Source of the DNA: a virus
DNA: 64,000 nt
IMG/VR virus record: IMGVR_UViG_3300008050_000019
Reading direction: 5' to 3' (one strand)
A model generated the notes under the pieces. That model did no database searches and was not told the origin of the DNA. It saw only the letters and a program-made list of their open reading frames with translations. Shown piece by piece: positions 3,370 through 59,210 of the stretch (position 1 is the first letter of the stretch; each line of letters starts with the position of its first letter). A program made the position numbers and the translations under genes.

Positions 3370-3745
3370 TTTTTCCTCTAAACCTACTTTTTCCCAACAA
3401 GCGAACGCCTAAATAAGCAATCCCTGCTCTGTATTTGTCAACTTTATCAACCTTAACTAAGATTGAGTAAAAAATTATGTCACATTCTTTTCTAGATAAG
3501 AAATACTCGCTTCCGTCTTTATAAAGTCTGTTATCTGAGTAGAGATAATCATGAGCACATGTACCGATCTTAGCATCAATACCAAGAAAGTTTCTTAGCC
3601 ATTGTGGTCCAGCTGCACCATTCCAAGGAAATTTCTTTGGGATGGTTACTATTCGCTCATCAATGGCCAATTTCAATTCTTTTTGTAGAATAAACTTTTT
3701 ATTATTTAGCTTAGAGTACAAAAATTTTGATGCTACTATCTTCAT
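3362..3745 (-). CDS. hypothetical protein (C-x-H-D motif)
   Basis: ORF track extends to 3751 via a GTG; first ATG is at 3745 and abuts the tRNA at 3749; contains 'GTCAHDYLY' (phospholipase-A2-like C-x-H-D signature, weak). Confidence 0.4.
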   Translation of the reverse strand: MKIVASKFLYSKLNNKKFILQKELKLAIDERIVTIPKKFPWNGAAGPQWLRNFLGIDAKIGTCAHDYLYSDNRLYKDGSEYFLSRKECDIIFYSILVKVDKVDKYRAGIAYLGVRLLGKSRFRGKNV

Positions 3746-3748
3746 ATA

Positions 3749-3822
3749 CACTCCCTAGTGGATTCGAACCACTGACCTTGAGCTTAGAAGGCTCCTGCGC
3801 TATCCAGCTGCGCTAAGGGAGT
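3749..3822 (-). tRNA. tRNA-Arg (anticodon TCT)
   Basis: Reverse complement folds as a cloverleaf: acceptor ACTCCCT/AGGGAGT (A1:U72), D-arm GCGC/GCGC, anticodon loop CTTCTAA, T-arm AGTGG-TTCGAAT-CCACT. One mismatch in the anticodon stem. Confidence 0.6.
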
Positions 3823-4125
3823 AAATTGGCGCCACATTTAAAGCGCCTGCATATAGAATAGAATCATGTAATATACTACCGGGCCTATATACTCCCGGCA
3901 GGTAACCTGTATATGGTAAACTTGACATTGCCACGATTTATTATATGGCGACTTCTAAATGTCATGTGTCAAGCTCATTACATGATAATGATAAAGCTAT
4001 GGCTTTAATGTTCTAAGTCAGCGCATAATATTAACCCTCGTATTAAACTAATTGATTCCTCACGCTCAATCAGACGTTCGGCGTGTCGCAACCACAACAG
4101 CTGGCTAAGTAGCGTACTAGCCATA

Positions 4126-8523: not shown

Positions 8524-8534
8524 AGACGTAATCT

Positions 8535-8616
8535 CCAGGCTCACTCCTGATAAACCGGATATTTTATAATATAACCCCTTATTTTAATAAGGCCGGTTTA
8601 TCAGGAGTGAGCCTAG
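8535..8616. terminator. long-stem hairpin element (family copy 2); likely bidirectional terminator between convergent genes
   Basis: 22-bp perfect stem 8537-8558 / 8593-8614 with 34-nt AT-rich loop, between the end of the plus-strand gene 6865..8523 and the end of the minus-strand gene 8652..8960. Confidence 0.6.
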
Positions 8617-8651
8617 AAACAACCATGACACTTCATGATTAAAGGCAGGAA

Positions 8652-12829: not shown

Positions 12830-14251
12830 TTACCAAAGATCTTCTGAAAATAAATTTGGCGGGTGAGCCAGACTAAAAATCTGCTTTCCTGCGAGAGCTA
12901 TAATACCTGCCTCTTTACGATCTACGTACGTGCCACCGACTGTAACGAATCCTTGTCTTGGGCCGTGTAGTCTAGTCGTGTCTATACCCTTAGCATGCAT
13001 ATAATGGAGAATATTATGATGCCTGTTAGGCTGCGGAAGTGACCATACTTTTCCCGTCTCGTCTTTCACAGCAGCTTGCTTAATCATTGCAGCGCCCAAT
13101 AAGAGACGGAGCGCGGGCAGCTTTATATCATATTCAATTACTTTACGACGAATGTCTGCACCCACCTTATCTCCTGTAAAATGTGCCATTAACAATGGAA
13201 ACAGCTTCGGTTGTGCATAACTCTTCAGCGTATTAGCTAACTCTCCGCGTGTCCATGTATTATCATATAACACAGAAAAATCTGCAAGTGCATTGTCAAT
13301 GAGTGCCTTGTTTTCTTTGCGCATCTTGCAAATTGCGCTAAATGTTGGCTCGATGAAGTCAACGACTTCCCAATCATGTCCTGCAGCATACATATATGCA
13401 CTTAGCTTCTCTAAAGTGTCGATTTTATGTATTATGCAAAGTTCTTTGATATATTTTGGTGTTGCCTTCGAACGAAGATGGTGAAGTCTCATATACCATG
13501 AGCTTTTGAACTTCATCAATGTTACAGTACCAGCGGGACCTATCGCCCAGCCTACGACACCCTCAGAGTCATCAAATTCTCTGACGTCAGATTTTATCTT
13601 TTGAAGATCACCAGATAGTGTCTCATTGATTACAGGCGTTTTAATACCTGCATCACGAAAAAGCTCATCGCATAACCGAACTTCAAGAGCATCTCCATCC
13701 CATTTTACGCGAGCAAGACCCACGAGATCATGTTCATTGTACTTTATAATAATTCTATTTGAAGGTCCGACATACTCAAAAAGCATTGAACCCTCAGAAG
13801 ACCATGATGGGTCAAGAAGTAAAGGATACTTGGCAAGCACTTTTTCAACGCCCTTAGAAACATTCTCAGCCAGCACTTCACAGCCCCGTGTTCTAAAGTT
13901 GACGAGGCCGTCGATTACTGAGCGGATTATTAATGATCCGTCAAGCTTCTCTGGCAATATAACATTACCTGCAGCATGATAAGTATCAAACTCTTTATCA
14001 AGAGTAGGCCTTTCAGTGTAGTTGAAAAACTTTGGAAACCCAGAGGAAAGTATCGTTCCATCAGGGCGAGTCATGACAGAACGAAGGTGATATTCGTCTG
14101 GACCCCATTCGTGCATCACCTTATGTGGAACAATTACAACAACATCACCGATACCAGGAATGTGGCGGTTGTTTGTATAAAATCTTGACGTATCAATATT
14201 TGGTATATTTATCTTCATCGTTGGACCGAGTATTATTATAACTCGGTCCAA
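12830..14251 (-). CDS. RNA ligase (Rnl1-like nucleotidyltransferase)
   Basis: Covalent nucleotidyltransferase motifs in correct order: motif I 'EKLDGSL' (KxDG, close to T4 Rnl1 KEDGSL), motif IV 'EGVVG', motif V 'LMKFKSS'. A clearer T7-type DNA ligase is present elsewhere in the window. Confidence 0.55.
   Translation of the reverse strand: MDRVIIILGPTMKINIPNIDTSRFYTNNRHIPGIGDVVVIVPHKVMHEWGPDEYHLRSVMTRPDGTILSSGFPKFFNYTERPTLDKEFDTYHAAGNVILPEKLDGSLIIRSVIDGLVNFRTRGCEVLAENVSKGVEKVLAKYPLLLDPSWSSEGSMLFEYVGPSNRIIIKYNEHDLVGLARVKWDGDALEVRLCDELFRDAGIKTPVINETLSGDLQKIKSDVREFDDSEGVVGWAIGPAGTVTLMKFKSSWYMRLHHLRSKATPKYIKELCIIHKIDTLEKLSAYMYAAGHDWEVVDFIEPTFSAICKMRKENKALIDNALADFSVLYDNTWTRGELANTLKSYAQPKLFPLLMAHFTGDKVGADIRRKVIEYDIKLPALRLLLGAAMIKQAAVKDETGKVWSLPQPNRHHNILHYMHAKGIDTTRLHGPRQGFVTVGGTYVDRKEAGIIALAGKQIFSLAHPPNLFSEDLW
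14223..14249. promoter_or_regulatory. hairpin overlapping first codons of the RNA ligase gene
   Basis: 9-bp inverted repeat ggaccgagt / actcggtcc with 9-nt loop attattata, immediately after the stop of 14270..15256. Confidence 0.35.
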
Positions 14252-14269
14252 CGACTAAAGACACATATA

Positions 14270-15256: not shown

Positions 15257-15729
15257 TCTGTATATTGTTTTATATCTTGTATTGTCACAGTGTCAACGTC
15301 AGGAAAAACACACGAGACAAGAATTTCTAATGCGTACGCTTGCACGATTGCAATGTGGTTTGCATAACACAACTCGTATCCGAACTCCCACCCTTGATCT
15401 GACATCGAGGGTGACATTTCGCCACAATGATTATTGTCACCATAATAAAATGCATTTAAAACGTTATGTAATGATTCTGACGTTACTACTGGAACCAGGG
15501 GGTTGCCGCAAGTAGAGCAAAATTTTGCAAATGAAGAATAGCTCTTCCCGCAATGCTCTGAGGTTAAATATCCCTCATTTACTTCTAAGTAAGATGAATA
15601 AAAATCCTTCATGAACATACGGAGCATATCGGTGACTGTGTCAAAGCCATCTTGGTGAGTGATACTAAGCTCAGTTATCGCACCAGTCTCCGCGTAGCCG
15701 GGTTTTAATAAAATTTGATGAACTCTCAT
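15232..15729 (-). CDS. zinc-ribbon-containing hypothetical protein
   Basis: 'CGKSYSSFAKFCSTCGNP' Cys pairs; conserved promoter-like motif 12 nt upstream of the ATG. Confidence 0.45.
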   Translation of the reverse strand: MRVHQILLKPGYAETGAITELSITHQDGFDTVTDMLRMFMKDFYSSYLEVNEGYLTSEHCGKSYSSFAKFCSTCGNPLVPVVTSESLHNVLNAFYYGDNNHCGEMSPSMSDQGWEFGYELCYANHIAIVQAYALEILVSCVFPDVDTVTIQDIKQYTDCSKGITI

Positions 15730-15738
15730 TGATTAATA

Positions 15739-15769
15739 AATTATATTACGAATTATTCATTTTAACACA
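15739..15769 (-). promoter_or_regulatory. conserved promoter-like motif (site D)
   Basis: Transcribed strand TGTGTTAAAATGAATAATTCGTAATATAAT, 12 nt before the ATG of 15232..15729. Confidence 0.45.
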
Positions 15770-16088
15770 ATCTATTAATCAATTTGTGTTTAAGCGGAAT
15801 CTTGTTATACCCTGCAATAACGCAAAATTTACCATCTACAAAAACAACAAAGTCATAACGTGACCATTTTTCGTTGTATGATCTTCCTGAGCCTATATAC
15901 ACCATGATACCTACATTAGGTCTGCAATCAGAAAAGAGCTTGTAAGTAGTGGGGATGTACACTTCATCTTCCCACCCAACTAGATCTCTTCTATAGAGAC
16001 GGTGGACAGAGTTACATTCATGTGCGTCAGATTTATTTTGCCACACATTCTCTTGCAGAATGAACAAATCACCAGGTTTTAAAGCCAT
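15762..16088 (-). CDS. small 'GDLV/GDLF-motif' family protein
   Basis: N-terminal 'KPGDLFIL' motif shared with 16135, 47597, 47791, 48083 and others. Confidence 0.4.
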   Translation of the reverse strand: MALKPGDLFILQENVWQNKSDAHECNSVHRLYRRDLVGWEDEVYIPTTYKLFSDCRPNVGIMVYIGSGRSYNEKWSRYDFVVFVDGKFCVIAGYNKIPLKHKLINRLC

Positions 16089-16134: not shown

Positions 16135-16392
16135 TTAATATACAAAATCTGCCGTTAAAAAAACTGTTTCTTCTAAGATAAAGAAATTGGCAGGCGAGCC
16201 CAAATAAAGCATGCAACTTGGGTTCACCAATCTTACGTCCCATGGAAGCTTTGCATATTTTCTGAAGAGTGTATCATGTGAATCATGTGAATTGGGTGAC
16301 ATGTACAGGGACTCCCGTGGTATGAATAAATCGCCGAACTTCAAAGACACAGTCGCACCTTCAGCCCCCTCTTTCGAATTTGCATACAACAA
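16135..16392 (-). CDS. small 'GDLV/GDLF-motif' family protein
   Basis: 'KFGDLFIPRES' motif; overlaps 16341..16661 in another frame, so boundaries uncertain. Confidence 0.35.
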   Translation of the reverse strand: MLYANSKEGAEGATVSLKFGDLFIPRESLYMSPNSHDSHDTLFRKYAKLPWDVRLVNPSCMLYLGSPANFFILEETVFLTADFVY

Positions 16393-16661
16393 ATCCTACA
16401 AGGCTCTATTGGCGCGCACACTCCATCAAGCGTCCACCTTAAAATCTCGATGATATCGCCCTTTTTCGCTAATGGCAAAACACACGTCTCTGCATGCCTT
16501 GTCTCAGTCCGATACCCTTTGAACAAGGGATGCGTTTGTGACGTATTAACACCAATGCTTATGGGCGTCCGCTTTCTCCATAGAATTGCTGCGATATGAT
16601 ATATTTGACCATTCGCTAATGCTAACTGTTTAGCATTTTTATAGATTGATGGATATCTCAT
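16341..16661 (-). CDS. cytidine / dCMP deaminase-like zinc-binding protein
   Basis: 'HAE' ... 'PCRIC' (H-A/C-E ... P-C-x-x-C) zinc-coordinating signature of the CDA fold. Confidence 0.5.
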   Translation of the reverse strand: MRYPSIYKNAKQLALANGQIYHIAAILWRKRTPISIGVNTSQTHPLFKGYRTETRHAETCVLPLAKKGDIIEILRWTLDGVCAPIEPCRICCMQIRKRGLKVRLCL

Positions 16662-17584
16662 TACTTAAAGTCTTTTATGACGCCAGATTTAAGGCCTTGT
16701 GTGAATTTAGAAAAATAATCCTTAGGGTAATCTGCTACTGCATCAATAACATTTTCGTATGCAAATTCTCTCCACCACCCAGACGTTATGCTTGTACAGA
16801 CTTTTGATAGAGCAAGCATCCAAGCTTGTCTCTCAGACAAAACGCCCGGGTGCGGTACCAAGCTTCTTTCGATCGCTAATACTGCTGATTCTTCGATCAC
16901 GGATGCAAGCTTCAGGTCATTCGTTAAAGCATCAAACTTACTCTTATCAACAGCAACCTCTTGCCCATCTTTCTGGAAAAAAGTATATGCAGGGCGATTA
17001 TATAGCTTGACTGCGTCATGAATAGAATCATGGTCGTATTTATAATCAATCTGATCACGATTGAAGAATGCTTTTTTACTTTTATCTAGCGAGGGGAGAG
17101 GGTAGTTATACGTCTCTTTTTCTCGCAATTTTATAAAATCTACGTGTTCTGATTTAACAGTGGCTCCCATCGCCTTCATAAAATGATAGTGATGGACTGT
17201 TTTCCAAAAATGAGGATTATCTTTAAGATAACGATGAGATGACTTTAACGCAAACAGAAGGTCAATGCTTGGAACAAGCCCAAAGTCAGTTTGAAAAGAT
17301 GCTGTATCATTCTTAACAAGAGAATGAAGCATGCGCGAACTCTCTCTCTTAGAGACTAGCTCAAACTCAAGATTAACAGTGCCTTGAACTATCAGATTTC
17401 TCCCTAGGTGCAAATACACTTTTCTTGGTTTGATTGCACTTCTATTTTCTTCAATAAAATATCTTGCATCACTTTCTGTGCCGACAAAGTCAAAATCAGC
17501 ATCGTCTCGAATTTTAAATCTTTGTGATCTTAAAGCAAGGGCACGACTACCAACTAAAATTAGATTAGCAAACTTGTGAGGCAT
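16661..17584 (-). CDS. hypothetical protein
   Basis: 307-aa ORF, no motif recognised. Confidence 0.45.
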   Translation of the reverse strand: MPHKFANLILVGSRALALRSQRFKIRDDADFDFVGTESDARYFIEENRSAIKPRKVYLHLGRNLIVQGTVNLEFELVSKRESSRMLHSLVKNDTASFQTDFGLVPSIDLLFALKSSHRYLKDNPHFWKTVHHYHFMKAMGATVKSEHVDFIKLREKETYNYPLPSLDKSKKAFFNRDQIDYKYDHDSIHDAVKLYNRPAYTFFQKDGQEVAVDKSKFDALTNDLKLASVIEESAVLAIERSLVPHPGVLSERQAWMLALSKVCTSITSGWWREFAYENVIDAVADYPKDYFSKFTQGLKSGVIKDFK

Positions 17585-17849
17585 TCCAACCGCTACTTTC
17601 TTCTAAATCATAAACTTCAATGCCTGTTAGATTTGCAACAAATTTAAGGCTAATCCCTTCGAATATATCGAAGATTGGCGGAGAATGTACGAAACTACGC
17701 TGTGATACTCCTGACTCAAATGGAATCCCGTGTTCATTTGATATTGCAACTGCCTCCGCAAGAAGTAATTCTGCAGCGGCCACTCTATCGTTTATTTGCG
17801 TGCCCACGTCATCTAGCGTTTTTTTGAACAATGCTTGAAGGTTATCCAT
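17565..17849 (-). CDS. hypothetical protein
   Basis: Start codon lies inside the 39-bp palindrome at 17840-17878. Confidence 0.4.
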   Translation of the reverse strand: MDNLQALFKKTLDDVGTQINDRVAAAELLLAEAVAISNEHGIPFESGVSQRSFVHSPPIFDIFEGISLKFVANLTGIEVYDLEESSGWNASQVC

Positions 17850-17878
17850 ATGATTTATTATAAATCATATGGATAACC
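17840..17878. promoter_or_regulatory. perfect 39-bp palindrome (19-1-19) covering a start codon
   Basis: ggttatccatatgatttat-t-ataaatcatatggataacc; contains the ATG of 17565..17849 and sits just after the stop of 17893..18900. Confidence 0.6.
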
Positions 17879-17892
17879 ATTACAACTTATTA

Positions 17893-18900
17893 TTACCAAG
17901 TTTCCCTGATGCGTTTTATTAAAGCTTTTTTGCCCCCAGGGATAGAATTCGCAGTGCTAATCTTCAGATGTTTTCTAGCATATTCGCGCAATTGCTTGAG
18001 TGTAAAATCTTCGAGTGGGTAAATGGTAAACTTAGTCCAGTCTGGTTGAGTTGGCTTAACTACGGGGTGGCCGGCTGGCTGGCTGTGGATATCACTCGGA
18101 CGGCCAAGCTCAAAAGGATCACCACAATCACCATAATCATCACAATCATCGCAATCATCAATGCTCACATCATCATCTCTATATGACCATGTAACAGATG
18201 GCAGTGCTTGTGTATACTCATGCAAAACAGTATACTTACAAACTCTTACTTTCTGGTATGAACAATCATAGGGAACACAAACGACGTCAGCTGGATCCAC
18301 TTCACAGATCAGAATCCTACTTCCGTTACCAAAACCTTCAGCGTATTCAAGCGCGCCGACATGATATCCATAGCTGCATGCTGAGTTTGGGTCATCTGAA
18401 ATCTTGTTTCTGGGCATTTCATTCGTGCAGCCAGGCTTATTAGAGATCGTTTTTGTATGATGGTCAAGATAATCTTGTGTAACAGATTTGTACGCCAAAA
18501 ATGTCCCTTTATCCGTCAGGGGAATATTTTCATGCTCTAAAAATTTATATAGTTGCTCAATAGAGCGGGCGCTTGTATTATTATTCAACCGTATCCAGAA
18601 GTTCATGAATACATCTGGTGATGCGTCGTTCCTTACCATCGAAAGAATTCGTTGAGCCAGCTCAATTGGAATAGCTTCTTTTTTGTAAAGAATAGTATCA
18701 TCATCAGTTACTTCAAAATCACCTGATGCCCAGTTTTTAATTGCACTCTTTGGAGAGGCCAAAGAAAGTGCTTCATCCCAATCTTCTCGAAAGAGTGCAT
18801 CTCGCAATGAAGAAAAGTTATCATCTTCTCTATGTAAGGTCTCTAGTTCACCAGATGGTAATATTAATGTTATGACGTCGTTAGTTATGCTATATTTCAT
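17893..18900 (-). CDS. hypothetical protein with acidic Asp/Cys repeat, downstream partner of the Hsp90 homologue
   Basis: 335 aa; 'SIDDCDDCDDYGDCGD' encoded by a short tandem repeat at 18118-18158. Confidence 0.45.
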   Translation of the reverse strand: MKYSITNDVITLILPSGELETLHREDDNFSSLRDALFREDWDEALSLASPKSAIKNWASGDFEVTDDDTILYKKEAIPIELAQRILSMVRNDASPDVFMNFWIRLNNNTSARSIEQLYKFLEHENIPLTDKGTFLAYKSVTQDYLDHHTKTISNKPGCTNEMPRNKISDDPNSACSYGYHVGALEYAEGFGNGSRILICEVDPADVVCVPYDCSYQKVRVCKYTVLHEYTQALPSVTWSYRDDDVSIDDCDDCDDYGDCGDPFELGRPSDIHSQPAGHPVVKPTQPDWTKFTIYPLEDFTLKQLREYARKHLKISTANSIPGGKKALIKRIRETW

Positions 18901-18910
18901 GTATGCCTTG

Positions 18911-20902
18911 TTATGCTGCTTTTGCAGCGTCCTTTAATAGAATGTAATCCACCCAGTCTGTGATAGTACCCTCATTTACTTCACCAAAACACTTCATCAA
19001 AAGAGGGTAATCCGCAGAAAGCAAAGCTAGATAATCTTCATGTTCTGTTGGGTACACAATACCTTTACATTGTGATAAAAGATATTGAAAATTTGTCCAT
19101 TTCCATGAGATGCCTTTTGTCGCTGCATTTAGATACCTTGATAATATGTGTTCAGCAGGAAGTATAGATTTTGTACTTTTTAACAAAAGTGATGTTGCGT
19201 TTGTGTATCTCCAAGTGCTACTAATACGGTGGTTTTTCCAAGCGATATTTCTAAGTTCATCGATCACTAAAGGGTGCTTTTGTATTTCTTCATAGAAGGT
19301 AGCTCGCCATGCCGAATATGATATACCCTTTACGGTTCCAGGCTTTACCGGCGATTTTTCTGTAGATTTGTACCCGTAAATTTTTGGAAAATCAATGCCA
19401 AGTTTAGCTGCAACTTTCTTGTCTTTATCAATAATATCAAGATAATTTTTCATTTCATGGGGCACAAATCTACACAAAAGAAAGTATACGTCAGTATCTG
19501 CTTGTAGCGACACCCTGGGTATCCAGTTTTCTGATTGCAACGAGTAAACAGCTTGGGGCATAAGACGAAATGCCCTATGCCCATGTTTTGAGTTTGGTAC
19601 TTTCTTTGGTACATCTTTACCAGTCCAAGGTAAAGATGAAATTCTACTAATTGGTATACCTTCGCATCCTTGCTCTGCAACCAGAGATTCCAATTCAGCA
19701 AAAACATCATCTGCCGTGCATCCTGTTGCAGGTCGTAACGTAACAGCACCTGATGGTATCATGTACCCTTTAAGTGCTTTTCTTGTATCAATAATAATGA
19801 TCTGCGTTTGTTTTTTAGGAGGAAGTAGTGCTCTTTTTCCGTTAAAAGTTTTTGCTCTTTTGCATATAAAACTCTTCGGCTTAAAATTAAAGGGCAGTTT
19901 AATTCCAGCATTGCAAAACTTATAATAGAATATTTTCTTCTCCCAAGATGAACATTGAGAATTTTTAACTTTATGTAGTTTTGCTAGTAAATCTGTATAA
20001 AGGGTTGAAATTGTTTTCTTTAGTGCCGCCCTTGTTCTTGGAGTGTATTTTAACTCTTCTCTGTTTGCCGTGAAGTCCACTTCACCTATGTCAAAGAAAA
20101 ACCTGAATCTTGAGTACCAGCCGAAATCATAGTCATTGGTATTCATCACACTAGTAATTTCTTCTGATGAAACTTTGTATGAAATACCTCCCATAACTGC
20201 TTCATTATTGTTGGCCCGGCGTAAAAGTTCTGCTTTTGTACCCTTGAAAGTCACATCATCTAATCTATCAGATATAACGTCAGGGAGATTAAATTTAACG
20301 TTTGCGCTCATGTACTTAAATACATGTCCTGCTTTCAAAAGGAAGGCTCTGTGATCAGCTTGCTTTACAGGAATTGCAATCTCGACGCCTGTTATACCTA
20401 TATCACACTCATCTTCGTATAGCAAGCATAAAATGCCTTCATCTAATTCATCTAATGCAGCATTATATACACGCTTCATACCTTTGTGCCATGAAGTTAT
20501 GTTAAATGATGATGTATAAGAGAATGCAGCTTTTGACCCAATTCCAAGTGTACCAACTTGTTCATTAGTATCACGTTTAGTAGAAGAGCCATAACTAACG
20601 TAAACTCGTATACCTTCCTCTGATAGGCCGGGGCCGTTATCCCGTATCTTTAGAGTCGGTGTTAGTGCGGTTGGTAAGTTAACTTTAATGGGTATGTCTT
20701 CATTACCCGCTTCAGCATTTGCATCCCTAGCGTTAGCCCCATATTCACGTAACACCGCCAATATATTATCTGTATATAACTGATCTCTCATGATACGCAT
20801 CAAGTGTGCGTTATCACCGGCCTTATTAGAAATCTCGAAGCGTATTTCATCGCCGATACCAGTTGTCGTTAATGTTCTGTTTTCTAAATTAACTTTTGCC
20901 AT
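18911..20902 (-). CDS. htpG: Hsp90 / HtpG-family molecular chaperone
   Basis: GHKL N-domain motifs aligning to HtpG in order: 'HLMRIMRDQLYTDNILAVLREYGANARDA' (N box; HtpG [27 protein letters not shown]), 'IRDNGPGLSEEGI' (G1), 'YGSSTKRD', 'VGTLGIGSKAAFS' (G2; HtpG IGQFGVGFYSAF). Middle-domain 'FTANREELKYTPRTRAALKKTI' matches the HtpG catalytic-loop segment '[25 protein letters not shown]'. Length 663 aa is similar to HtpG. Confidence 0.7.
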   Translation of the reverse strand: MAKVNLENRTLTTTGIGDEIRFEISNKAGDNAHLMRIMRDQLYTDNILAVLREYGANARDANAEAGNEDIPIKVNLPTALTPTLKIRDNGPGLSEEGIRVYVSYGSSTKRDTNEQVGTLGIGSKAAFSYTSSFNITSWHKGMKRVYNAALDELDEGILCLLYEDECDIGITGVEIAIPVKQADHRAFLLKAGHVFKYMSANVKFNLPDVISDRLDDVTFKGTKAELLRRANNNEAVMGGISYKVSSEEITSVMNTNDYDFGWYSRFRFFFDIGEVDFTANREELKYTPRTRAALKKTISTLYTDLLAKLHKVKNSQCSSWEKKIFYYKFCNAGIKLPFNFKPKSFICKRAKTFNGKRALLPPKKQTQIIIIDTRKALKGYMIPSGAVTLRPATGCTADDVFAELESLVAEQGCEGIPISRISSLPWTGKDVPKKVPNSKHGHRAFRLMPQAVYSLQSENWIPRVSLQADTDVYFLLCRFVPHEMKNYLDIIDKDKKVAAKLGIDFPKIYGYKSTEKSPVKPGTVKGISYSAWRATFYEEIQKHPLVIDELRNIAWKNHRISSTWRYTNATSLLLKSTKSILPAEHILSRYLNAATKGISWKWTNFQYLLSQCKGIVYPTEHEDYLALLSADYPLLMKCFGEVNEGTITDWVDYILLKDAAKAA

Positions 20903-20908
20903 ATTTCA

Positions 20909-20981
20909 TATGATCAGAGGGACTCGAACCCTCAACATACCAGCCTGTAGTGCTGGGCTCTACCATTGAGCTATGATCACC
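20909..20981 (-). tRNA. tRNA-Val (anticodon TAC), tentative isotype
   Basis: 73-nt cloverleaf: acceptor GTGATCA/TGATCAT (G1:U72), D-arm GCTC-AATGGTA-GAGC, anticodon stem CCAGC/GCTGG with loop ACTACAG (C at position 33 is unusual), T-arm GAGGG-TTCGAGT-CCCTC. Confidence 0.55.
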
Positions 20982-37155: not shown

Positions 37156-37999
37156 ATGAAGCCTTCATCTTCTCTAACTCTTTAGAGGAGATTGGAAACT
37201 TTTTATGATCTTTTGGATTTTCCGTTAAACCAAATCTCATTCTAAGTATCTTTTCTTCTCTAGGGTTTAGTGAGTTTAAAACCCCAGATAAGAGAGCAGT
37301 AAGTTCTTTTTTATTAATTAAATCAAGTGGGGATTCTGAGTCGACGTCTTCTATTACATCTTTTAATGTTCTTGAGTCAGCGCCATCTGAGCCAATGGGC
37401 TTATCAATAGATACCAGCAAAGGAATACCTGAAATTGCTGATTGGACTGTCGTTTCAGTCACCCCTATTATCGATGCAAGCTCGGCGCAGGTAGGTTCTT
37501 GTGCATGCAGTTCAATGAATTCATCACGTGCCAATTGTATTCGAACGTAAACGTCAGTAACCCTACCAGAGGTCTTTATCTGCTTACTTTGTGATGCAAC
37601 TTCGCGCCCGATATTTTGGCGAATCCACCAAGTTGCATATGTTGAGAATCTAAACCCTTTTCTCCAATCAAATAACTCAGTAGCTCTGATTAAACCAATA
37701 TTGCCTGCTGCGATTAAGTCATCAAGACTGCAGCCTCTATTTTGGAACCTTTTTGCTATCGAGACAACTAAGCGTAAGTTAGATTCTATCATCTTATTCT
37801 TAGCTCTTGATTTCTCACTTTTGCTAATTGCTTTTGAAGATTCTATTCTTATTTCGCCATCAGGCTCTCTTGTATATTTAACATCCTCAAAGCCCTCAAT
37901 TTTTTGAGAAAGAATAATTTCTTGTTCTTTTGTAAGCAAAGGTCTTTTACCAATCTGTTTAAGATAAAATCCTACGCCACCACTATCTTGTTTAGCCAC
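37148..37999 (-). CDS. RNA polymerase sigma factor, sigma-70 family
   Basis: Region 1.2/2.1 'YLKQIGKRPLLTKEQEIILSQKI'; region 2.2-2.4 'NLRLVVSIAKRFQNRGCSLDDLIAAGNIGLIRATELFDWRKGFRFSTYATWWIRQNI'; region 4 HTH 'LNPREEKILRMRFGL'. Confidence 0.85.
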   Translation of the reverse strand: MAKQDSGGVGFYLKQIGKRPLLTKEQEIILSQKIEGFEDVKYTREPDGEIRIESSKAISKSEKSRAKNKMIESNLRLVVSIAKRFQNRGCSLDDLIAAGNIGLIRATELFDWRKGFRFSTYATWWIRQNIGREVASQSKQIKTSGRVTDVYVRIQLARDEFIELHAQEPTCAELASIIGVTETTVQSAISGIPLLVSIDKPIGSDGADSRTLKDVIEDVDSESPLDLINKKELTALLSGVLNSLNPREEKILRMRFGLTENPKDHKKFPISSKELEKMKASCA

Positions 38000-38017
38000 T
38001 ATTTCAAATTTTCCTGC

Positions 38018-38476
38018 TTAACCCTTTCTTAAAAGTGCTTTCTTTAATTGTTGCTTTTGCTTTTCTTCTTTTTTTCTTAAAATTTCTCTTGACTTAGCCT
38101 TTGATTTTTCAATATTAGCCTGTAATCTTTGCTGTGTAGATTTTTGTAGTTCAATCTTTGCATATGGTGCTACTTTAACTGCATATGCAAAGATTGCAGT
38201 CTTATCTATAAGAGAAACAAGAGTGTCATATGCAACACGATAAATTTCTTCTGTTTTTTCTATTTCAAGCAACCTTTTTTCGAAGGTTGCTTGTATAGTA
38301 AATGTCGCGTCTATTCTCAGCTGAGTTTGCTTTATACCCTGCGCTTGCGATAGCGCAGTTTGTCTGTAAGAATACGTGTCATTTGTCGCGTTGAATGCCC
38401 ATTGTGACACAAGATCCAAATTATCATCTAATGCTTGTATTTGTAACAATTCTTTTGGTTCTTTTATTCCATACAC
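38018..38476 (-). CDS. coiled-coil hypothetical protein
   Basis: Lys/Glu/Gln-rich C-terminal half; immediately upstream of the sigma factor gene. Confidence 0.4.
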   Translation of the reverse strand: MYGIKEPKELLQIQALDDNLDLVSQWAFNATNDTYSYRQTALSQAQGIKQTQLRIDATFTIQATFEKRLLEIEKTEEIYRVAYDTLVSLIDKTAIFAYAVKVAPYAKIELQKSTQQRLQANIEKSKAKSREILRKKEEKQKQQLKKALLRKG

Positions 38477-38517
38477 GATATGTTAATATTAACATTATAT
38501 TTTTTGCATTTACACGT

Positions 38518-39442: not shown

Positions 39443-39680
39443 CGCCTTTTTTTGCCTTTTTTAAGAAAAGAATATCTTCTCGTGATATTTTTTCTATTCT
39501 ATTATCTACATAGACGTTGCAGAAGGGTCCATGAGCCCATACATCATAACGTCTATGAAATGTCATGTTTGTTTTACCAGAATTAAAACCCTCTTGTAAC
39601 GAGAGAATTATTCCTATTTTATTTAATGATGATATCACAATAAGATCACCAATTTCATATAAAGTTTTATCTACACACAT
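39429..39680 (-). CDS. small 'GDLV-motif' family protein
   Basis: 'YEIGDLIVISS' motif. Confidence 0.35.
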   Translation of the reverse strand: MCVDKTLYEIGDLIVISSLNKIGIILSLQEGFNSGKTNMTFHRRYDVWAHGPFCNVYVDNRIEKISREDILFLKKAKKGDGKK

Positions 39681-41532
39681 TTGAAAAAATTCCCCTTAGA
39701 ATGTTTGTGTATCGGGACGCATTTAGAGGATATAGTTCTATCAATCTTGCCACATCATTAAAGACTATAGAATCCCATTGCAGAAAGAACTGTGTTTGTG
39801 TTATTATATACATTTCGTATGCATCCCCTGGTGTGCATATACCTACACCACAGTTGCTCGTATTTAGCGCTACATCACTTTCATTGAACCCAGCAACTGT
39901 CTGGGCTGCTTCGTCTGTAATAAGAATGATGTAAGGGTATGCCCCTGTTGATGTTACAGTAGATTCTCTCCAATTGATAAGTGCTGGATTTGTGCTGTTC
40001 GCTAAATCATGAACTACATCGTATGAAGGCTCTACACCTGGATATGATGCGGTAAGATTGTTCAATGCTGCAGAAAATACAGTAAAATCAACGAGATTTA
40101 CTAGTACATTATAATTATCTCTTCTACCAGGAAATACAACTAAACCAAACCTATGTTCTGTCCCTTGAAAGTCTGCAACATAATTACTTATCCCTGCTTG
40201 CAGAGCGAACATAGCTTGTGTCATTGAACCTGAGCCATCTATCACAAAAATTATATCTACCTTATCATGTGGTGTAAGATCCTCATCGATGAGCCCATCA
40301 CAGTCATTGTCAACCCCATCACAAGATTCTTGCTCAGGATAAACTGGTCCAATGCAGCTTGACCAAATGCCTGAAGTGCATGTTCTCTCGCCTAAAACGC
40401 ATTGTCCGATACCAGCCGTAGCAGGATCTCCGCATGCGTCTGTTAACTCATCGATTGTGCCGTCGCAATCATCATCCCAGTTATTACACACTTCGGGCTC
40501 GGTAGCAAAAGAATAACATGTACCCCATACACCATTAGAATCGCATATTGAAATGCCGGTACCGCAATTGATAAGCTCTCCCGTAGCGTGATCTAAGACA
40601 TTTTGTCGGCATACTCTAGCGTCACCGACTGTACATGCACAATCTTCATCGATTATCCCATCACAGTCATTATCAAAACCATCACATATTTCTCGTACTG
40701 GTTTTCTAGCATTACACCCTATCCAGTTGCCCACGTTGCAACTTTCTATACCACTTTCACATGAGGTTCTGCATAACCTCTCAAGCCCTTCATCAATTGC
40801 ACCATTACAGTCATTATCAAAACCATCGCAAATTTCAGGCGAAGGGTGTACAGCACCAACGCAATATGTTTCTTCTGATGTACATATTTGAGTGCCAAGT
40901 TGACACAAACCAACTTCACTTGACGGGCCGCATGAATCTAAAATTTCTTCGTCAGTAATACCATCACAATTATTATCAAAACCATCGCAAGTTTCTGGTG
41001 TCGGCAAAATAACGCCTGTACATTGTCCCCACACACCATGAGTACACCTTTGTTTTCCAGTTCTGCAAACGCTAGGGCTAATATAACTGTCGACAGCTGG
41101 ACCAGTCCAGCAATCCCGTGAATAATTGTCAATTACACCATTACAGTCATTATCAAAACCATCGCAGATTTCTATCCCGCCTGGGTTTATTTCGGCTATA
41201 TTGTCGTTACAATCGTTATCACAAGAGTTGTAGCCATCACCATCACCATCATGTCCTTCGTCAACTAAACCATCGCAGTCATTGTCCAAACCATCACAGA
41301 TTTCATTAACTTGTCCGATGAACCCTTCACAAAATGCCATTTCATTTTTAGCATCGCATGAAGTAATCCCCTTTTGGCAAGTGCCAATAGAATCTTTAAG
41401 ATTATCTGTTATTATTTTTCCGTTATTTATTATACACGGGCGTGGGGACTGACATACTCTCGATAAGTTATCATCTTCACATGCAGCAATAAAAAGCAGG
41501 GAGATAGATAAAAGTATATATTTCAACTTCAT
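39667..41532 (-). CDS. lipoprotein with seven Cys-rich CDGxDNDCDGxxDE (MopE-like putative metal-binding) repeats and C-terminal vWA-like domain
   Basis: Lipobox signal 'LLFIAAC'; repeats 'EICDGFDNDCDG(I/L)IDE' x7; C-terminal MIDAS-like 'DIIFVIDGSGSM'. Confidence 0.6.
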   Translation of the reverse strand: MKLKYILLSISLLFIAACEDDNLSRVCQSPRPCIINNGKIITDNLKDSIGTCQKGITSCDAKNEMAFCEGFIGQVNEICDGLDNDCDGLVDEGHDGDGDGYNSCDNDCNDNIAEINPGGIEICDGFDNDCNGVIDNYSRDCWTGPAVDSYISPSVCRTGKQRCTHGVWGQCTGVILPTPETCDGFDNNCDGITDEEILDSCGPSSEVGLCQLGTQICTSEETYCVGAVHPSPEICDGFDNDCNGAIDEGLERLCRTSCESGIESCNVGNWIGCNARKPVREICDGFDNDCDGIIDEDCACTVGDARVCRQNVLDHATGELINCGTGISICDSNGVWGTCYSFATEPEVCNNWDDDCDGTIDELTDACGDPATAGIGQCVLGERTCTSGIWSSCIGPVYPEQESCDGVDNDCDGLIDEDLTPHDKVDIIFVIDGSGSMTQAMFALQAGISNYVADFQGTEHRFGLVVFPGRRDNYNVLVNLVDFTVFSAALNNLTASYPGVEPSYDVVHDLANSTNPALINWRESTVTSTGAYPYIILITDEAAQTVAGFNESDVALNTSNCGVGICTPGDAYEMYIITQTQFFLQWDSIVFNDVARLIELYPLNASRYTNILRGIFSNVCR

Positions 41533-43212: not shown

Positions 43213-45031
<1,819 letters not shown>

Positions 45032-57035: not shown

Positions 57036-58312
57036 TTTTGTTTCTTTACTCTTTTGAATGCTTTAAAGTCTAGACCGTACTTTTTTCTTACTGCTGTTTT
57101 TCTTGACTGGAGGGTTGTTTTCTTTAGAGAAAGAAGCTCACAAAGTTCATTAAGTGATTGTGAATTATTCCATTGCAGTTGAAAACGCTTACCCTCAGAT
57201 GCTTTTCTTTGTTCATCTCTGCTTCTTTTTAAGAGCTTGCCCGTATTTACGCTTAGATACTTAAAGTCTTTCGCAATCTTTAGTTTAATAACTTTGAGCA
57301 TTTTTTCAATGTGTATATCTCTATCAATAATTTTTCTGTGTACTCTTTCGCATATCCCAGAAACATATCTTCCAGTCTCTATAGTTCCTTTAGGAAATCC
57401 CTCTGATATTGCATAAAAGCACTGATCTTCTTTTAGAGAAAATTTTGCTCTACCATTTTTTGAACTTAGAAATCCTTTAACATCACCGATTGTACTACAG
57501 TCGGTTAACACACTGTTTAGTTCCTCTTCGAAAGCTATAGCTGCAGCTTTTAATGATAGATAATAATCATCAAGATTTTCTTGCTCAGAAGATACAAGAG
57601 CGCATGCTGCGCCGTAATATCTGTCAATGACTACTTTTTCAAGTTGTATATTGTTCTTGACATCATTTACGCCAAGAGAATTAAGGTTTGCATTTTTACA
57701 TGTGTTGATGATACAATTGATCACGCCAGCGCCGGAATCCCACGTCCCCGTTCTTCCTAATCTGTATGAGCTTGATATATCCATATCTTTAACATGAATG
57801 TTTTCGCCGTCGACACAAAAATCGTAAGCGCCACCTGGATCTGCATAGAGTGTATCATTGCTGAATAGCAACGCAAATAACACTTCATATCTGCCTACTG
57901 CGTTACCCGTAGTTTGATTAATGACGTCTGCTAACGGGCATAAACATTTTGGAATAGTATATTCACTAGGCTTGCTTATATCAAGTTCGAGACTCAATAC
58001 ACTTGAAACAAGTTCAGCCGGTGTATGAACAGCAATATCATTAAGCACAAGCAAGATTTTCTCTCTAAGCTCCGGGAAAAAATTTATTCTTTTAGCAAGC
58101 TTCAAAAACAAGGATCTTCTATCTGCATTTATAAATAACTCTTGTAGTTCATTTAAAGTACATGATTCATCATATTTTTTGAAACCTGATTCGTGTAGGA
58201 GAGTTGTTATTGCCTTTATGGTGTCGTCGTTATTTGCTGTGTAACCGATTTTCTCAATATACACTTCATTCTTCCCATTAAAGGATATCGTTATATTGTC
58301 CATTATGGACAA
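57032..58312 (-). CDS. hypothetical protein
   Basis: 426-aa ORF overlapping downstream gene by 4 nt. Confidence 0.45.
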   Translation of the reverse strand: MSIMDNITISFNGKNEVYIEKIGYTANNDDTIKAITTLLHESGFKKYDESCTLNELQELFINADRRSLFLKLAKRINFFPELREKILLVLNDIAVHTPAELVSSVLSLELDISKPSEYTIPKCLCPLADVINQTTGNAVGRYEVLFALLFSNDTLYADPGGAYDFCVDGENIHVKDMDISSSYRLGRTGTWDSGAGVINCIINTCKNANLNSLGVNDVKNNIQLEKVVIDRYYGAACALVSSEQENLDDYYLSLKAAAIAFEEELNSVLTDCSTIGDVKGFLSSKNGRAKFSLKEDQCFYAISEGFPKGTIETGRYVSGICERVHRKIIDRDIHIEKMLKVIKLKIAKDFKYLSVNTGKLLKRSRDEQRKASEGKRFQLQWNNSQSLNELCELLSLKKTTLQSRKTAVRKKYGLDFKAFKRVKKQK

Positions 58313-58344
58313 TTATATTGATTAAAGTAATTAGATATTACTTG

Positions 58345-58988: not shown

Positions 58989-59171
58989 CTAATCTTTAAT
59001 CTTAAATTTCATCCAGTGAATCAAATACTTCATCATCTGCTCTGATGGCAGATTAGTACCCTGCATCCATGATACAACTTCGCCAACAGTTACAGCGGCA
59101 CTTGCAGCGAGCTCAGTCAATGTAACATGTGCTGTAACTGTATTTAGTAACTCTATAAACTCTTCTTGCAT
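58989..59171 (-). CDS. small hypothetical protein
   Basis: ORF track. Confidence 0.3.
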   Translation of the reverse strand: MQEEFIELLNTVTAHVTLTELAASAAVTVGEVVSWMQGTNLPSEQMMKYLIHWMKFKIKD

Positions 59172-59210
59172 AGATCATTATAACAATCTATGCAAGAGTG
59201 TATAAAGTTA

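Follow-up and report, generated by a model that had tools for sequence, protein, structure and literature searches.

What is the function of a perfect 39-bp palindrome that engulfs the start codon of a small phage gene? The question is raised by positions 17840-17878 of a 64,000-nucleotide (nt) stretch of viral DNA (IMG/VR record IMGVR_UViG_3300008050_000019; this whole stretch is referred to as the window), which derives from an uncultured marine jumbo phage and carries nearly all of its genes on the minus strand. The palindrome is located between a homologue of the phage gene rIIB and an open reading frame (ORF) for a protein of 94 amino acids (aa). An earlier note, prepared from the sequence alone, had regarded it as an ideal operator for a dimeric repressor and, on the RNA level, as a hairpin that terminates the upstream message and occludes the initiation region downstream. 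The answer proposed here, which is held with moderate confidence, is that the palindrome represents a promoter-centred hairpin masking the start codon, that it gates expression of the 94-aa gene, and that it is part of a genome-wide grammar of leaderless promoters. The adjacent downstream gene, a member of the DUF7275/DUF7277 families, is probably subject to the same gate.

An inverted-repeat search confirmed that the palindrome is flawless, with two arms of 19 nt each (17840-17858 and 17860-17878) that are 100% complementary to each other and flank the single centre base 17859. The description of its surroundings in the earlier note also holds: the ATG of the ORF at 17565-17849 lies in the left arm in plus-strand coordinates, which is the 3′ arm in gene orientation, and the element follows shortly after the upstream stop codon (17895-17893), from which it is separated by 14 nt (17892-17879). 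The relevant parts of the locus are as follows.

17880-17885, minus strand: -35-like hexamer TTGTAA, directly 5′ of the palindrome, which fits a (G/T)TGTA(A/T) element
17860-17878, minus strand: 5′ arm in gene orientation, coinciding with the promoter spacer and the three leading nt of the -10 hexamer
17857-17862, minus strand: -10 hexamer TATAAT, which forms the dyad apex, contains the centre base 17859 and ends 7 nt before the ATG
17840-17858, minus strand: 3′ arm, covering the predicted transcription start region, the ATG, codons 2-3 and the first base of codon 4
17847-17849, minus strand: start codon of the 94-aa gene, its sole possible start

A palindrome of this kind is expected by chance only about 1e-5 times in 64 kb according to a rough estimate from base composition. 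When up to 3 mismatches were allowed, the 19-mer of the arm was found in the window only at its two known places (0.05 occurrences expected from shuffled sequences), and the inner 25-mer of the palindrome occurs once. The exact 19-mer had 4 single-arm matches and 0 palindromic matches in IMG/VR, all of them in unrelated contexts and thus attributable to chance, and an Rfam scan recovered tRNAs only. The identical palindrome (single-base changes at its apex are treated below) is present in assemblies from at least 7 independent samples (L005-L010 and L018), which were produced by different assemblers and include a 308,593-bp ENA contig, JGI contigs and Logan contigs. Since it was recovered from independent samples and with different assemblers, the palindrome is not an assembly artefact. 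The stem has a G + C content of 5/19 (26%). A 49-nt segment containing it folds as RNA with -24.1 kcal/mol (z = -8.3) and as DNA with -16.5 kcal/mol (z = -9.0), and in either case 0 of 200 shuffled sequences were equally stable.

A feature overlooked in the earlier note is that the palindrome is built around a promoter-like sequence. The intergenic region of 43 nt reads, on the coding strand and starting from the rIIB stop codon, TAA, TAATAAG, TTGTAA, T, GGTTATCCATATGATT-TATAAT-AAATCAT-ATG-GATAACC. A promoter scan identified in it the arrangement TTGTAA (17885-17880), 17 nt, TATAAT (17862-17857), 7 nt, and ATG (17849), with a sigma-70-type match of 10/12. The 3′ arm accordingly comprises the 7-nt gap that follows the -10 hexamer, the start codon and then 7 more coding bases. 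No Shine-Dalgarno (SD) sequence precedes the ATG of the 94-aa gene, and the -10 hexamer is 7 nt away from the start codon, in agreement with the approximately 5-8 nt that are expected of a leaderless promoter. A candidate T4 late promoter (TATAAATA) was also considered and rejected, as the palindrome contains only TATAATAA, on the sense strand, and no exact match.

The same arrangement recurs across the window. Of the 52 TATAAT hexamers on the minus strand, 13 precede the ATG of a called gene by 4-10 nt, compared to approximately 0.55 expected. In a control with 19 other hexamers of the same composition as TATAAT, unrelated hexamers scored 0-3, and only frame-shifted overlaps of TATAAT itself reached 5-6. 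Besides the palindrome, the class comprises the minus-strand sites at 59182, 58317, 48028, 46300, 45909, 28882, 28420, 26753, 15745, 9691, 6339 and 5901, most of which also have a (G/T)TGTA(A/T) element 17-18 nt 5′ of the TATAAT. SD-like motifs were found at none of the 13 starts of this class versus 37 of the 83 other starts. The gaps between TATAAT and ATG (4-10 nt) are centred on 6-7 nt, a distribution that would be expected if transcription began with the A of the ATG or beside it, and that would imply leaderless or near-leaderless mRNAs. Based on these patterns, the 13 starts are predicted to belong to leaderless transcription units of the jumbo phage. A comparable dichotomy of genes with either an adjoining -10 motif or a ribosome-binding-site motif has been validated experimentally in Deinococcus (PMC12340547).

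Two further genes of the window, which lack an SD sequence as well, start directly behind tRNA genes. One begins with the ATG at 3745, 2 nt past the 3′ end of tRNA-Arg (3748-3823), and the other is the rIIA homologue, whose ATG at 20902 is located 6 nt past the 3′ end of tRNA-Val (20909-20980). Processing of the tRNA 3′ ends would leave near-leaderless mRNAs for these two genes, which would fit the leaderless theme.

According to the proposed mechanism, the 94-aa gene can be reached by two kinds of transcript with opposite fates. Transcription from the internal promoter would begin at the A of the ATG, or 1-2 nt from it, and the resulting mRNA (5′-AUGGAUAACC...) would be leaderless and devoid of an SD sequence. 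The promoter spacer would have been shaped to pair without mismatch with the initial 19 nt of this mRNA. An upstream unit would be transcribed from a promoter of the same class before 21345 and would run through tRNA-Val, rIIA and rIIB. Read-through RNA from this unit would contain both arms and form a hairpin of 18-19 bp that buries the AUG, so that the 94-aa gene would remain untranslated. RNA initiated at the internal promoter would start within the 3′ arm, could not form the hairpin and would expose a 5′-terminal AUG. The 94-aa gene would in this way be expressed only while its own promoter is active.

The computed RNA structures agree with this scheme. In the read-through RNA the ATG is paired with a probability of 1.00 and opening of positions +1 to +15 costs approximately 18 kcal/mol; by comparison, 2.8 kcal/mol suffices to open this stretch when the RNA starts at the internal promoter. 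The idea of the earlier note that the hairpin occludes the downstream initiation region is thus borne out in silico. Its suggestion of translational coupling to rIIB is unlikely, as the hairpin begins 14 nt past the rIIB stop codon and should be out of reach of a terminating ribosome. Read-through from the upstream unit is plausible: no U-tract terminator was found on the coding strand between 22000 and 17850, and the small number of convincing U-tract terminators between genes, about two for the coding strand of the entire 64 kb, suggests that read-through is pervasive. The 5′ arm has an ATG of its own at 17868, which opens a mini-ORF (MIYNKSYG followed by a stop). As this mini-ORF lies in another frame and is enclosed in the hairpin stem as well, no role is proposed for it.

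Stems that cover a start codon are not restricted to this locus. Of 96 gene starts, 5 have a perfect stem of at least 9 bp whose 3′ arm extends over the ATG, as opposed to 0.2 expected from shuffled sequences and 0.59 (scaled) from other ATGs; for stems of at least 12 bp the count is 3 versus 0.015 and 0.13, respectively. Four of the five stems coincide with TATAAT promoters, namely those of the gene starting at 17849 and of the genes encoding an RNA ligase, a 60-aa protein and a 423-aa protein, and their arm sequences are unrelated. These elements, together with an imperfect one, are listed here.

14218-14254, minus strand: element at the RNA-ligase gene start, a 14-bp perfect stem with loop TATAATAAT; the A of the ATG ends the 3′ arm
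59164-59197, minus strand: element at the start of the 60-aa gene; TATAAT forms the apex, the 3′ arm includes the ATG (59171), and 5 nt separate TATAAT from the ATG
58295-58313, minus strand: palindrome at the start of the 423-aa gene, ATTGTCCAT-A-ATGGACAAT, with TATAAT immediately 5′ and overlapping the 5′ arm
15721-15790, minus strand: imperfect hairpin where a 165-aa gene starts; TATAAT belongs to the 3′ arm, and pairing ends with the A of the ATG

Because the arms differ at every site, complementarity itself, rather than a sequence recognized by a protein, appears to have been selected. The design is also found in a family-level relative of the phage (L013), which shares the ligase-x-rIIA-rIIB synteny, 45% identity in rIIB and the same promoter style. 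In this relative a non-homologous gene carries a perfect 19-bp stem (TTCTCTCCATAAGCACTAT/ATAGTGCTTATGGAGAGAA) whose apex is again formed by TATAAT and whose 3′ arm includes the ATG. The TATAAT-ATG design was found in none of the other rIIB-bearing jumbo-phage contigs (L012 and L014-L017), and the promoter grammar thus is lineage-specific.

Several observations weigh against the proposed gate. The homologues of the 94-aa gene in other phages (L011 and L019-L029) have SD-led starts without a hairpin. Covariation evidence for the palindrome is therefore lacking, and the palindrome has to be regarded as a lineage-specific regulatory overlay. The strains in which it was recovered are at least 99.9% identical, so that the invariance of its stem carries little weight. 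Generic sigma-70-like matches in the region are at chance level (30 versus 30.1 expected), and the promoter assignment consequently rests on positional enrichment instead of similarity to the consensus. At certain members of the class, including the RNA-ligase gene and the element in L013, the gaps measure 12-16 nt, and these sites would not be strictly leaderless. An internal AUG without an SD sequence might be translated poorly in any case, so that a 19-bp hairpin would look excessive. Finally, the transcription start site, the read-through, leaderless translation in the host, and the regulatory outcome are all inferred from sequence features.

The closest known counterparts of the proposed gate are found in T4-type phages. 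In the T4 genes e, soc, 49 and I-TevI, a hairpin hides the start region in read-through RNA and an internal promoter escapes this block (PMC3014915, section 29). These hairpins, and that of mobE in phage Aeh1, share with the palindrome the sequestration of the start and a promoter within the structure, which is predicted in the present case, and the genomic setting is likewise that of a large phage with rII genes and extended arrays of co-directional genes. In the jumbo phage, the AUG at 17849-17847 lies inside a stable computed RNA helix, with no SD sequence to sequester. The internal promoters of T4 are late promoters (gp55, TATAAATA) and the leaders of the respective genes contain the sequestered SD sequence, whereas here the promoter is sigma-70-like, the transcript is predicted to be leaderless, and the AUG and first codons would be hidden. 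In further contrast to T4, the -10 hexamer forms the apex of the hairpin. The temporal logic would also be reversed compared to T4, with expression confined to the period in which a host-sigma promoter is used.

Leaderless promoters such as lambda PRM-cI and those of the Deinococcus-Thermus group resemble the jumbo-phage sites in having a TAnnnT motif a few nt before the ATG, no SD sequence, and a second class of genes with SD sequences (PMC12340547; PMC10491246). They have not been described with the -10 motif and the AUG inside a palindrome that silences read-through RNA, and the start site here is predicted. A different comparison is offered by the PeSL elements, which are conserved and repeated G/C-rich terminators (GGGG...CCCC) upstream of an AT-rich/-35 region (PMC2839356). 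Unlike these, the palindrome has an AT-rich stem that overlaps the spacer, the -10 hexamer and the ATG instead of preceding the -35 region; its arms are unique in the window, and a U-tract is absent.

A set of three hairpins of approximately 90 nt on the minus strand (227-318, 8534-8617 and 28467-28550) was also detected in the window, with RNAfold energies of -64.6, -60.5 and -41.9 kcal/mol, respectively. Their stems follow the pattern AGGCTCAC(C/T)(C/T)CT(A/G)ATAAAC...GTTTAT(T/C)AG(G/A)(G/A)GTGAGCCT, in which compensatory changes occur between the copies, and they have no match in Rfam. The copy at 28467-28550 is followed by TATAAT promoters, a geometry similar to that of PeSL elements, and this hairpin family resembles PeSL elements more closely than the palindrome does.

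If the proposed gate exists, each gene of this kind would be translated only from its own promoter and would stay silent in read-through RNA of a 64-kb co-directional array. The T4 principle of combining a hairpin with an internal promoter would then extend to leaderless units of the sigma-70 type, and the same reusable grammar would operate in this phage and in at least one relative. A signature for annotation would follow, consisting of TATAAT 4-10 nt before an ATG, no SD sequence and a palindrome across both, which would mark early units in marine jumbo phages. The design would also be a compact one for synthetic gene insulation. For the locus itself it would mean that the gene following rIIB, paired with a DUF7275 gene, is unusually tightly controlled here.

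Among the alternative explanations, the one that survives best assigns the hairpin to the rIIA-rIIB message, as a stabilizer of its 3′ end, a non-canonical terminator or insulator similar to PeSL, or an RNase III site; the overlap with promoter and ATG would then be a by-product of the compact 43-nt intergenic region. The hairpin lies 14 nt past the rIIB stop codon, with comparable spacings at 14254 and 59197, and such hairpins occupy boundaries of transcription units. PeSL stem-loops beside early promoters do terminate transcription in T4-type phages (PMC2839356), and an A-U-rich duplex of 18-19 bp, lengthened by outer pairs, approaches the size of an RNase III substrate. A canonical terminator, as postulated in the earlier note, was not borne out: a stable hairpin soon after a stop codon is indeed a property of intrinsic terminators, but the stem has only 5 G+C among its 19 pairs, its 3′ flank (TTCAAGCATTG) lacks a U-tract, and the palindrome is not in the terminator-like lists of two scans. 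An intrinsic terminator is thereby ruled out. The clear terminators of this phage do carry U-tracts. A genuine one at 30689-30653 on the minus strand consists of a 16-bp stem and a 5-nt loop followed by TTTTTTGTGTTT, and one other comparable intergenic terminator is located at 33395-33426. Compactness is a doubtful explanation for the overlap, since intergenic spacers at promoter sites reach up to 321 nt and a 3′ arm that reaches into the coding sequence by 10 nt would then be a needless constraint. We therefore consider it unlikely that the hairpin is explained by the upstream message, although such a role is compatible with the promoter-gate explanation and the two could coexist. The terminator at 30653-30689 is itself followed by a promoter-like TATATT and an ATG at 30612.

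The operator proposed in the earlier note would imply that a dimeric or tetrameric repressor of the phage or its host covers the -10 hexamer and the start site and shuts the promoter. The perfect dyad is centred exactly on the -10 hexamer of the promoter-like site, and a dyad-symmetric site overlapping core promoter elements is what an operator calls for; operators positioned over the -10 region represent a classical repression geometry. In this symmetry around a promoter element the palindrome resembles the operators of the lambda/P22/434 type and LexA boxes. However, operators of helix-turn-helix dimers typically measure 14-21 bp in all. Those of lambda, P22, 434 and LexA fall in this range and are imperfect, whereas the 39 bp of perfect symmetry observed here are about twice that length, and helix-turn-helix operators seldom have all positions symmetric. 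Further copies of the 19-mer, of a 13-mer or of the inner 25-mer did not exceed chance in the 64 kb, the palindrome is a single copy in the window, and no repressor-like gene was recognized among the five neighbouring genes. Moreover, promoters of the same class carry unrelated arms, a pattern for which one protein cannot account. The operator claim thus found no support, and we regard this explanation as quite unlikely. A pair of DnaA boxes was rejected as well: TTATCCATA in each arm matches TTATCCACA in 8/9 positions, but matches with at most one mismatch number 32 in the window compared to 25 expected.

It is very unlikely that the palindrome has no selected function and arose by quasi-palindrome correction (template switching) at a partly symmetric promoter, to be merely tolerated thereafter. 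Templated mutation can yield perfect arms, TATAAT and CATATG are near-palindromic, and the homologues of the 94-aa gene elsewhere lack the hairpin. Against this stand the enrichment of start-covering stems at gene starts, which is about 10-fold or more and concerns specifically the promoter-proximal ones, and the recurrence of the same geometry on an unrelated gene in the distant relative L013.

A last alternative concerns the DNA itself and is connected to variation at the apex. The assemblies of the same phage are at least 99.9% identical over up to 10 kb, and 3 of the 4 substitutions in approximately 27 kb of strain comparisons hit the two central bases of the palindrome. These are 17859 A>T in L007 and L018, which changes the hexamer to TATTAT, and 17860 T>A in L010, which changes it to TAAAAT. 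All apex variants lie inside the 3-nt loop and keep TAnnnT, and the 18 stem pairs are invariant. In addition, two Logan contigs (L008 and L009) begin exactly at 17869, the position that, by our own reasoning, would be the expected branch of a k=31 graph if both orientations of the centre were present. The loop polymorphism could reflect a real flip of the palindrome, hypermutability of the loop, or fold-back artefacts.

A flip would be part of a supercoil-sensitive promoter, in which cruciform extrusion at high negative superhelicity places the -10 hexamer at the hairpin tips and switches the promoter off, with the apex polymorphism resulting from hairpin-mediated strand switching. The palindrome is perfect and has an AT-rich centre (ATGATTTATAATAAATCAT), and its DNA hairpin has -16.5 kcal/mol per strand. 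The inversion of a perfect palindrome becomes visible solely at the centre base, and one of the two distinct apex changes, found in two assemblies, is the A/T swap expected of an inversion; the start of L008 and L009 at 17869 fits the graph branching. Horwitz and Loeb reportedly described, in 1988, an engineered promoter in E. coli that is controlled through the extrusion of a cruciform. If the centre were flipped, the A/T swap would move the perfect TATAAT from the sense to the antisense strand and leave TATTAT on the sense strand, and a one-nucleotide flip-flop would be present in the phage population, where it would tune or redirect the cruciform-embedded promoter. Extrusion of short palindromes is rare in vivo, however, fold-back chimeras from library preparation would equally account for the k-mer branching and perhaps for the centre swap, and the other elements of the class have loops of 9-14 nt or imperfect stems and are poor extruders. 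We thus give hardly any credence to a supercoil-sensitive promoter of this kind, and it appears equally improbable that the palindrome acts as a DNA switch, extruding or flipping in vivo, in addition to serving as an RNA gate.

The genes on both sides of the palindrome are the following.

17893-18900, minus strand: rIIB homologue, 335 aa (phrog_609 at 2.3e-61; PF26926 Phage_T4_rIIB)
17565-17849, minus strand: 94-aa gene, member of a small conserved protein family
16661-17584, minus strand: DUF7275/DUF7277 gene, 307 aa (PF23940 at 5.4e-60)

The upstream genes had been named an HtpG-like gene and its partner in the earlier note. These names are wrong, as matches to phrog and Pfam families identify the two as homologues of rIIA (18911-20902; phrog_612 at 3.8e-84; PF13589 HATPase_c_3) and rIIB, respectively. 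The closest rIIB among 5.8 billion proteins has an identity of 47%. No close cultured relative of the phage was found on the DNA level, nor on the protein level for the 94-aa ORF, and scans of IMG/VR with the 94-aa, rIIB and RNA-ligase proteins gave no close match.

The sequence data indicate that the ORF at 17565-17849 is a real gene. An exhaustive HMMER search retrieved 69 homologues of similar length at E ≤ 1e-3, and the codon-usage log-likelihood is typical of the genes of this phage. The family shares the motif ...EHGIPF... and a C-terminal GWxHSxVC that ends in Cys, and some members carry an N-terminal extension of approximately 60-90 aa. In the jumbo phage, the ATG at 17849 is the only possible start because an in-frame TGA (17867-17865) precedes it with no ATG, GTG or TTG in between. 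The predicted structure of the 94-aa protein had too low a confidence for a fold search (pLDDT 61, pTM 0.34). The end of the gene overlaps the DUF7275/DUF7277 gene by 20 nt, and the two are probably co-expressed. In contig L011 (3685-4927), a likely member of the 94-aa family, which shares the C-terminal GW..S...C and was unscored, precedes a DUF7275 homologue. Genes of the 94-aa family thus appear to be located directly upstream of a DUF7275/DUF7277 gene in at least 2 unrelated phages.

Further downstream, the window lacks a T at position 16163 that is present in all 5 of the other assemblies covering this site (L005-L009). The position lies among short overlapping ORFs, and a frameshift or an error in the assembly of the window may be the cause.

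Two more inverted repeats were noticed in the window. A perfect one of 25 bp (29183-29207/29256-29280) with a G+C-rich loop of 48 nt and -52.8 kcal/mol overlaps a called 87-aa ORF (29116-29379), which may be a structured RNA rather than coding. The other (38152-38196) has perfect 15-bp arms, CAATCTTTGCATATG...CATATGCAAAGATTG, and is situated in a region of approximately 700 bp (37793-38517) without any ORF of at least 50 aa.

The cargo of the window includes tRNAs, DNA and RNA ligases, a GroEL-like chaperonin and a vault-protein-like gene. Unusual for a jumbo phage are the gene at 30704-33280, which encodes the shoulder and repeat domains of a major vault protein and has a counterpart in L016, the GroEL-type chaperonin gene at 43213-44874, and a gene for a MopE-repeat/VWA protein at 39667-41532.

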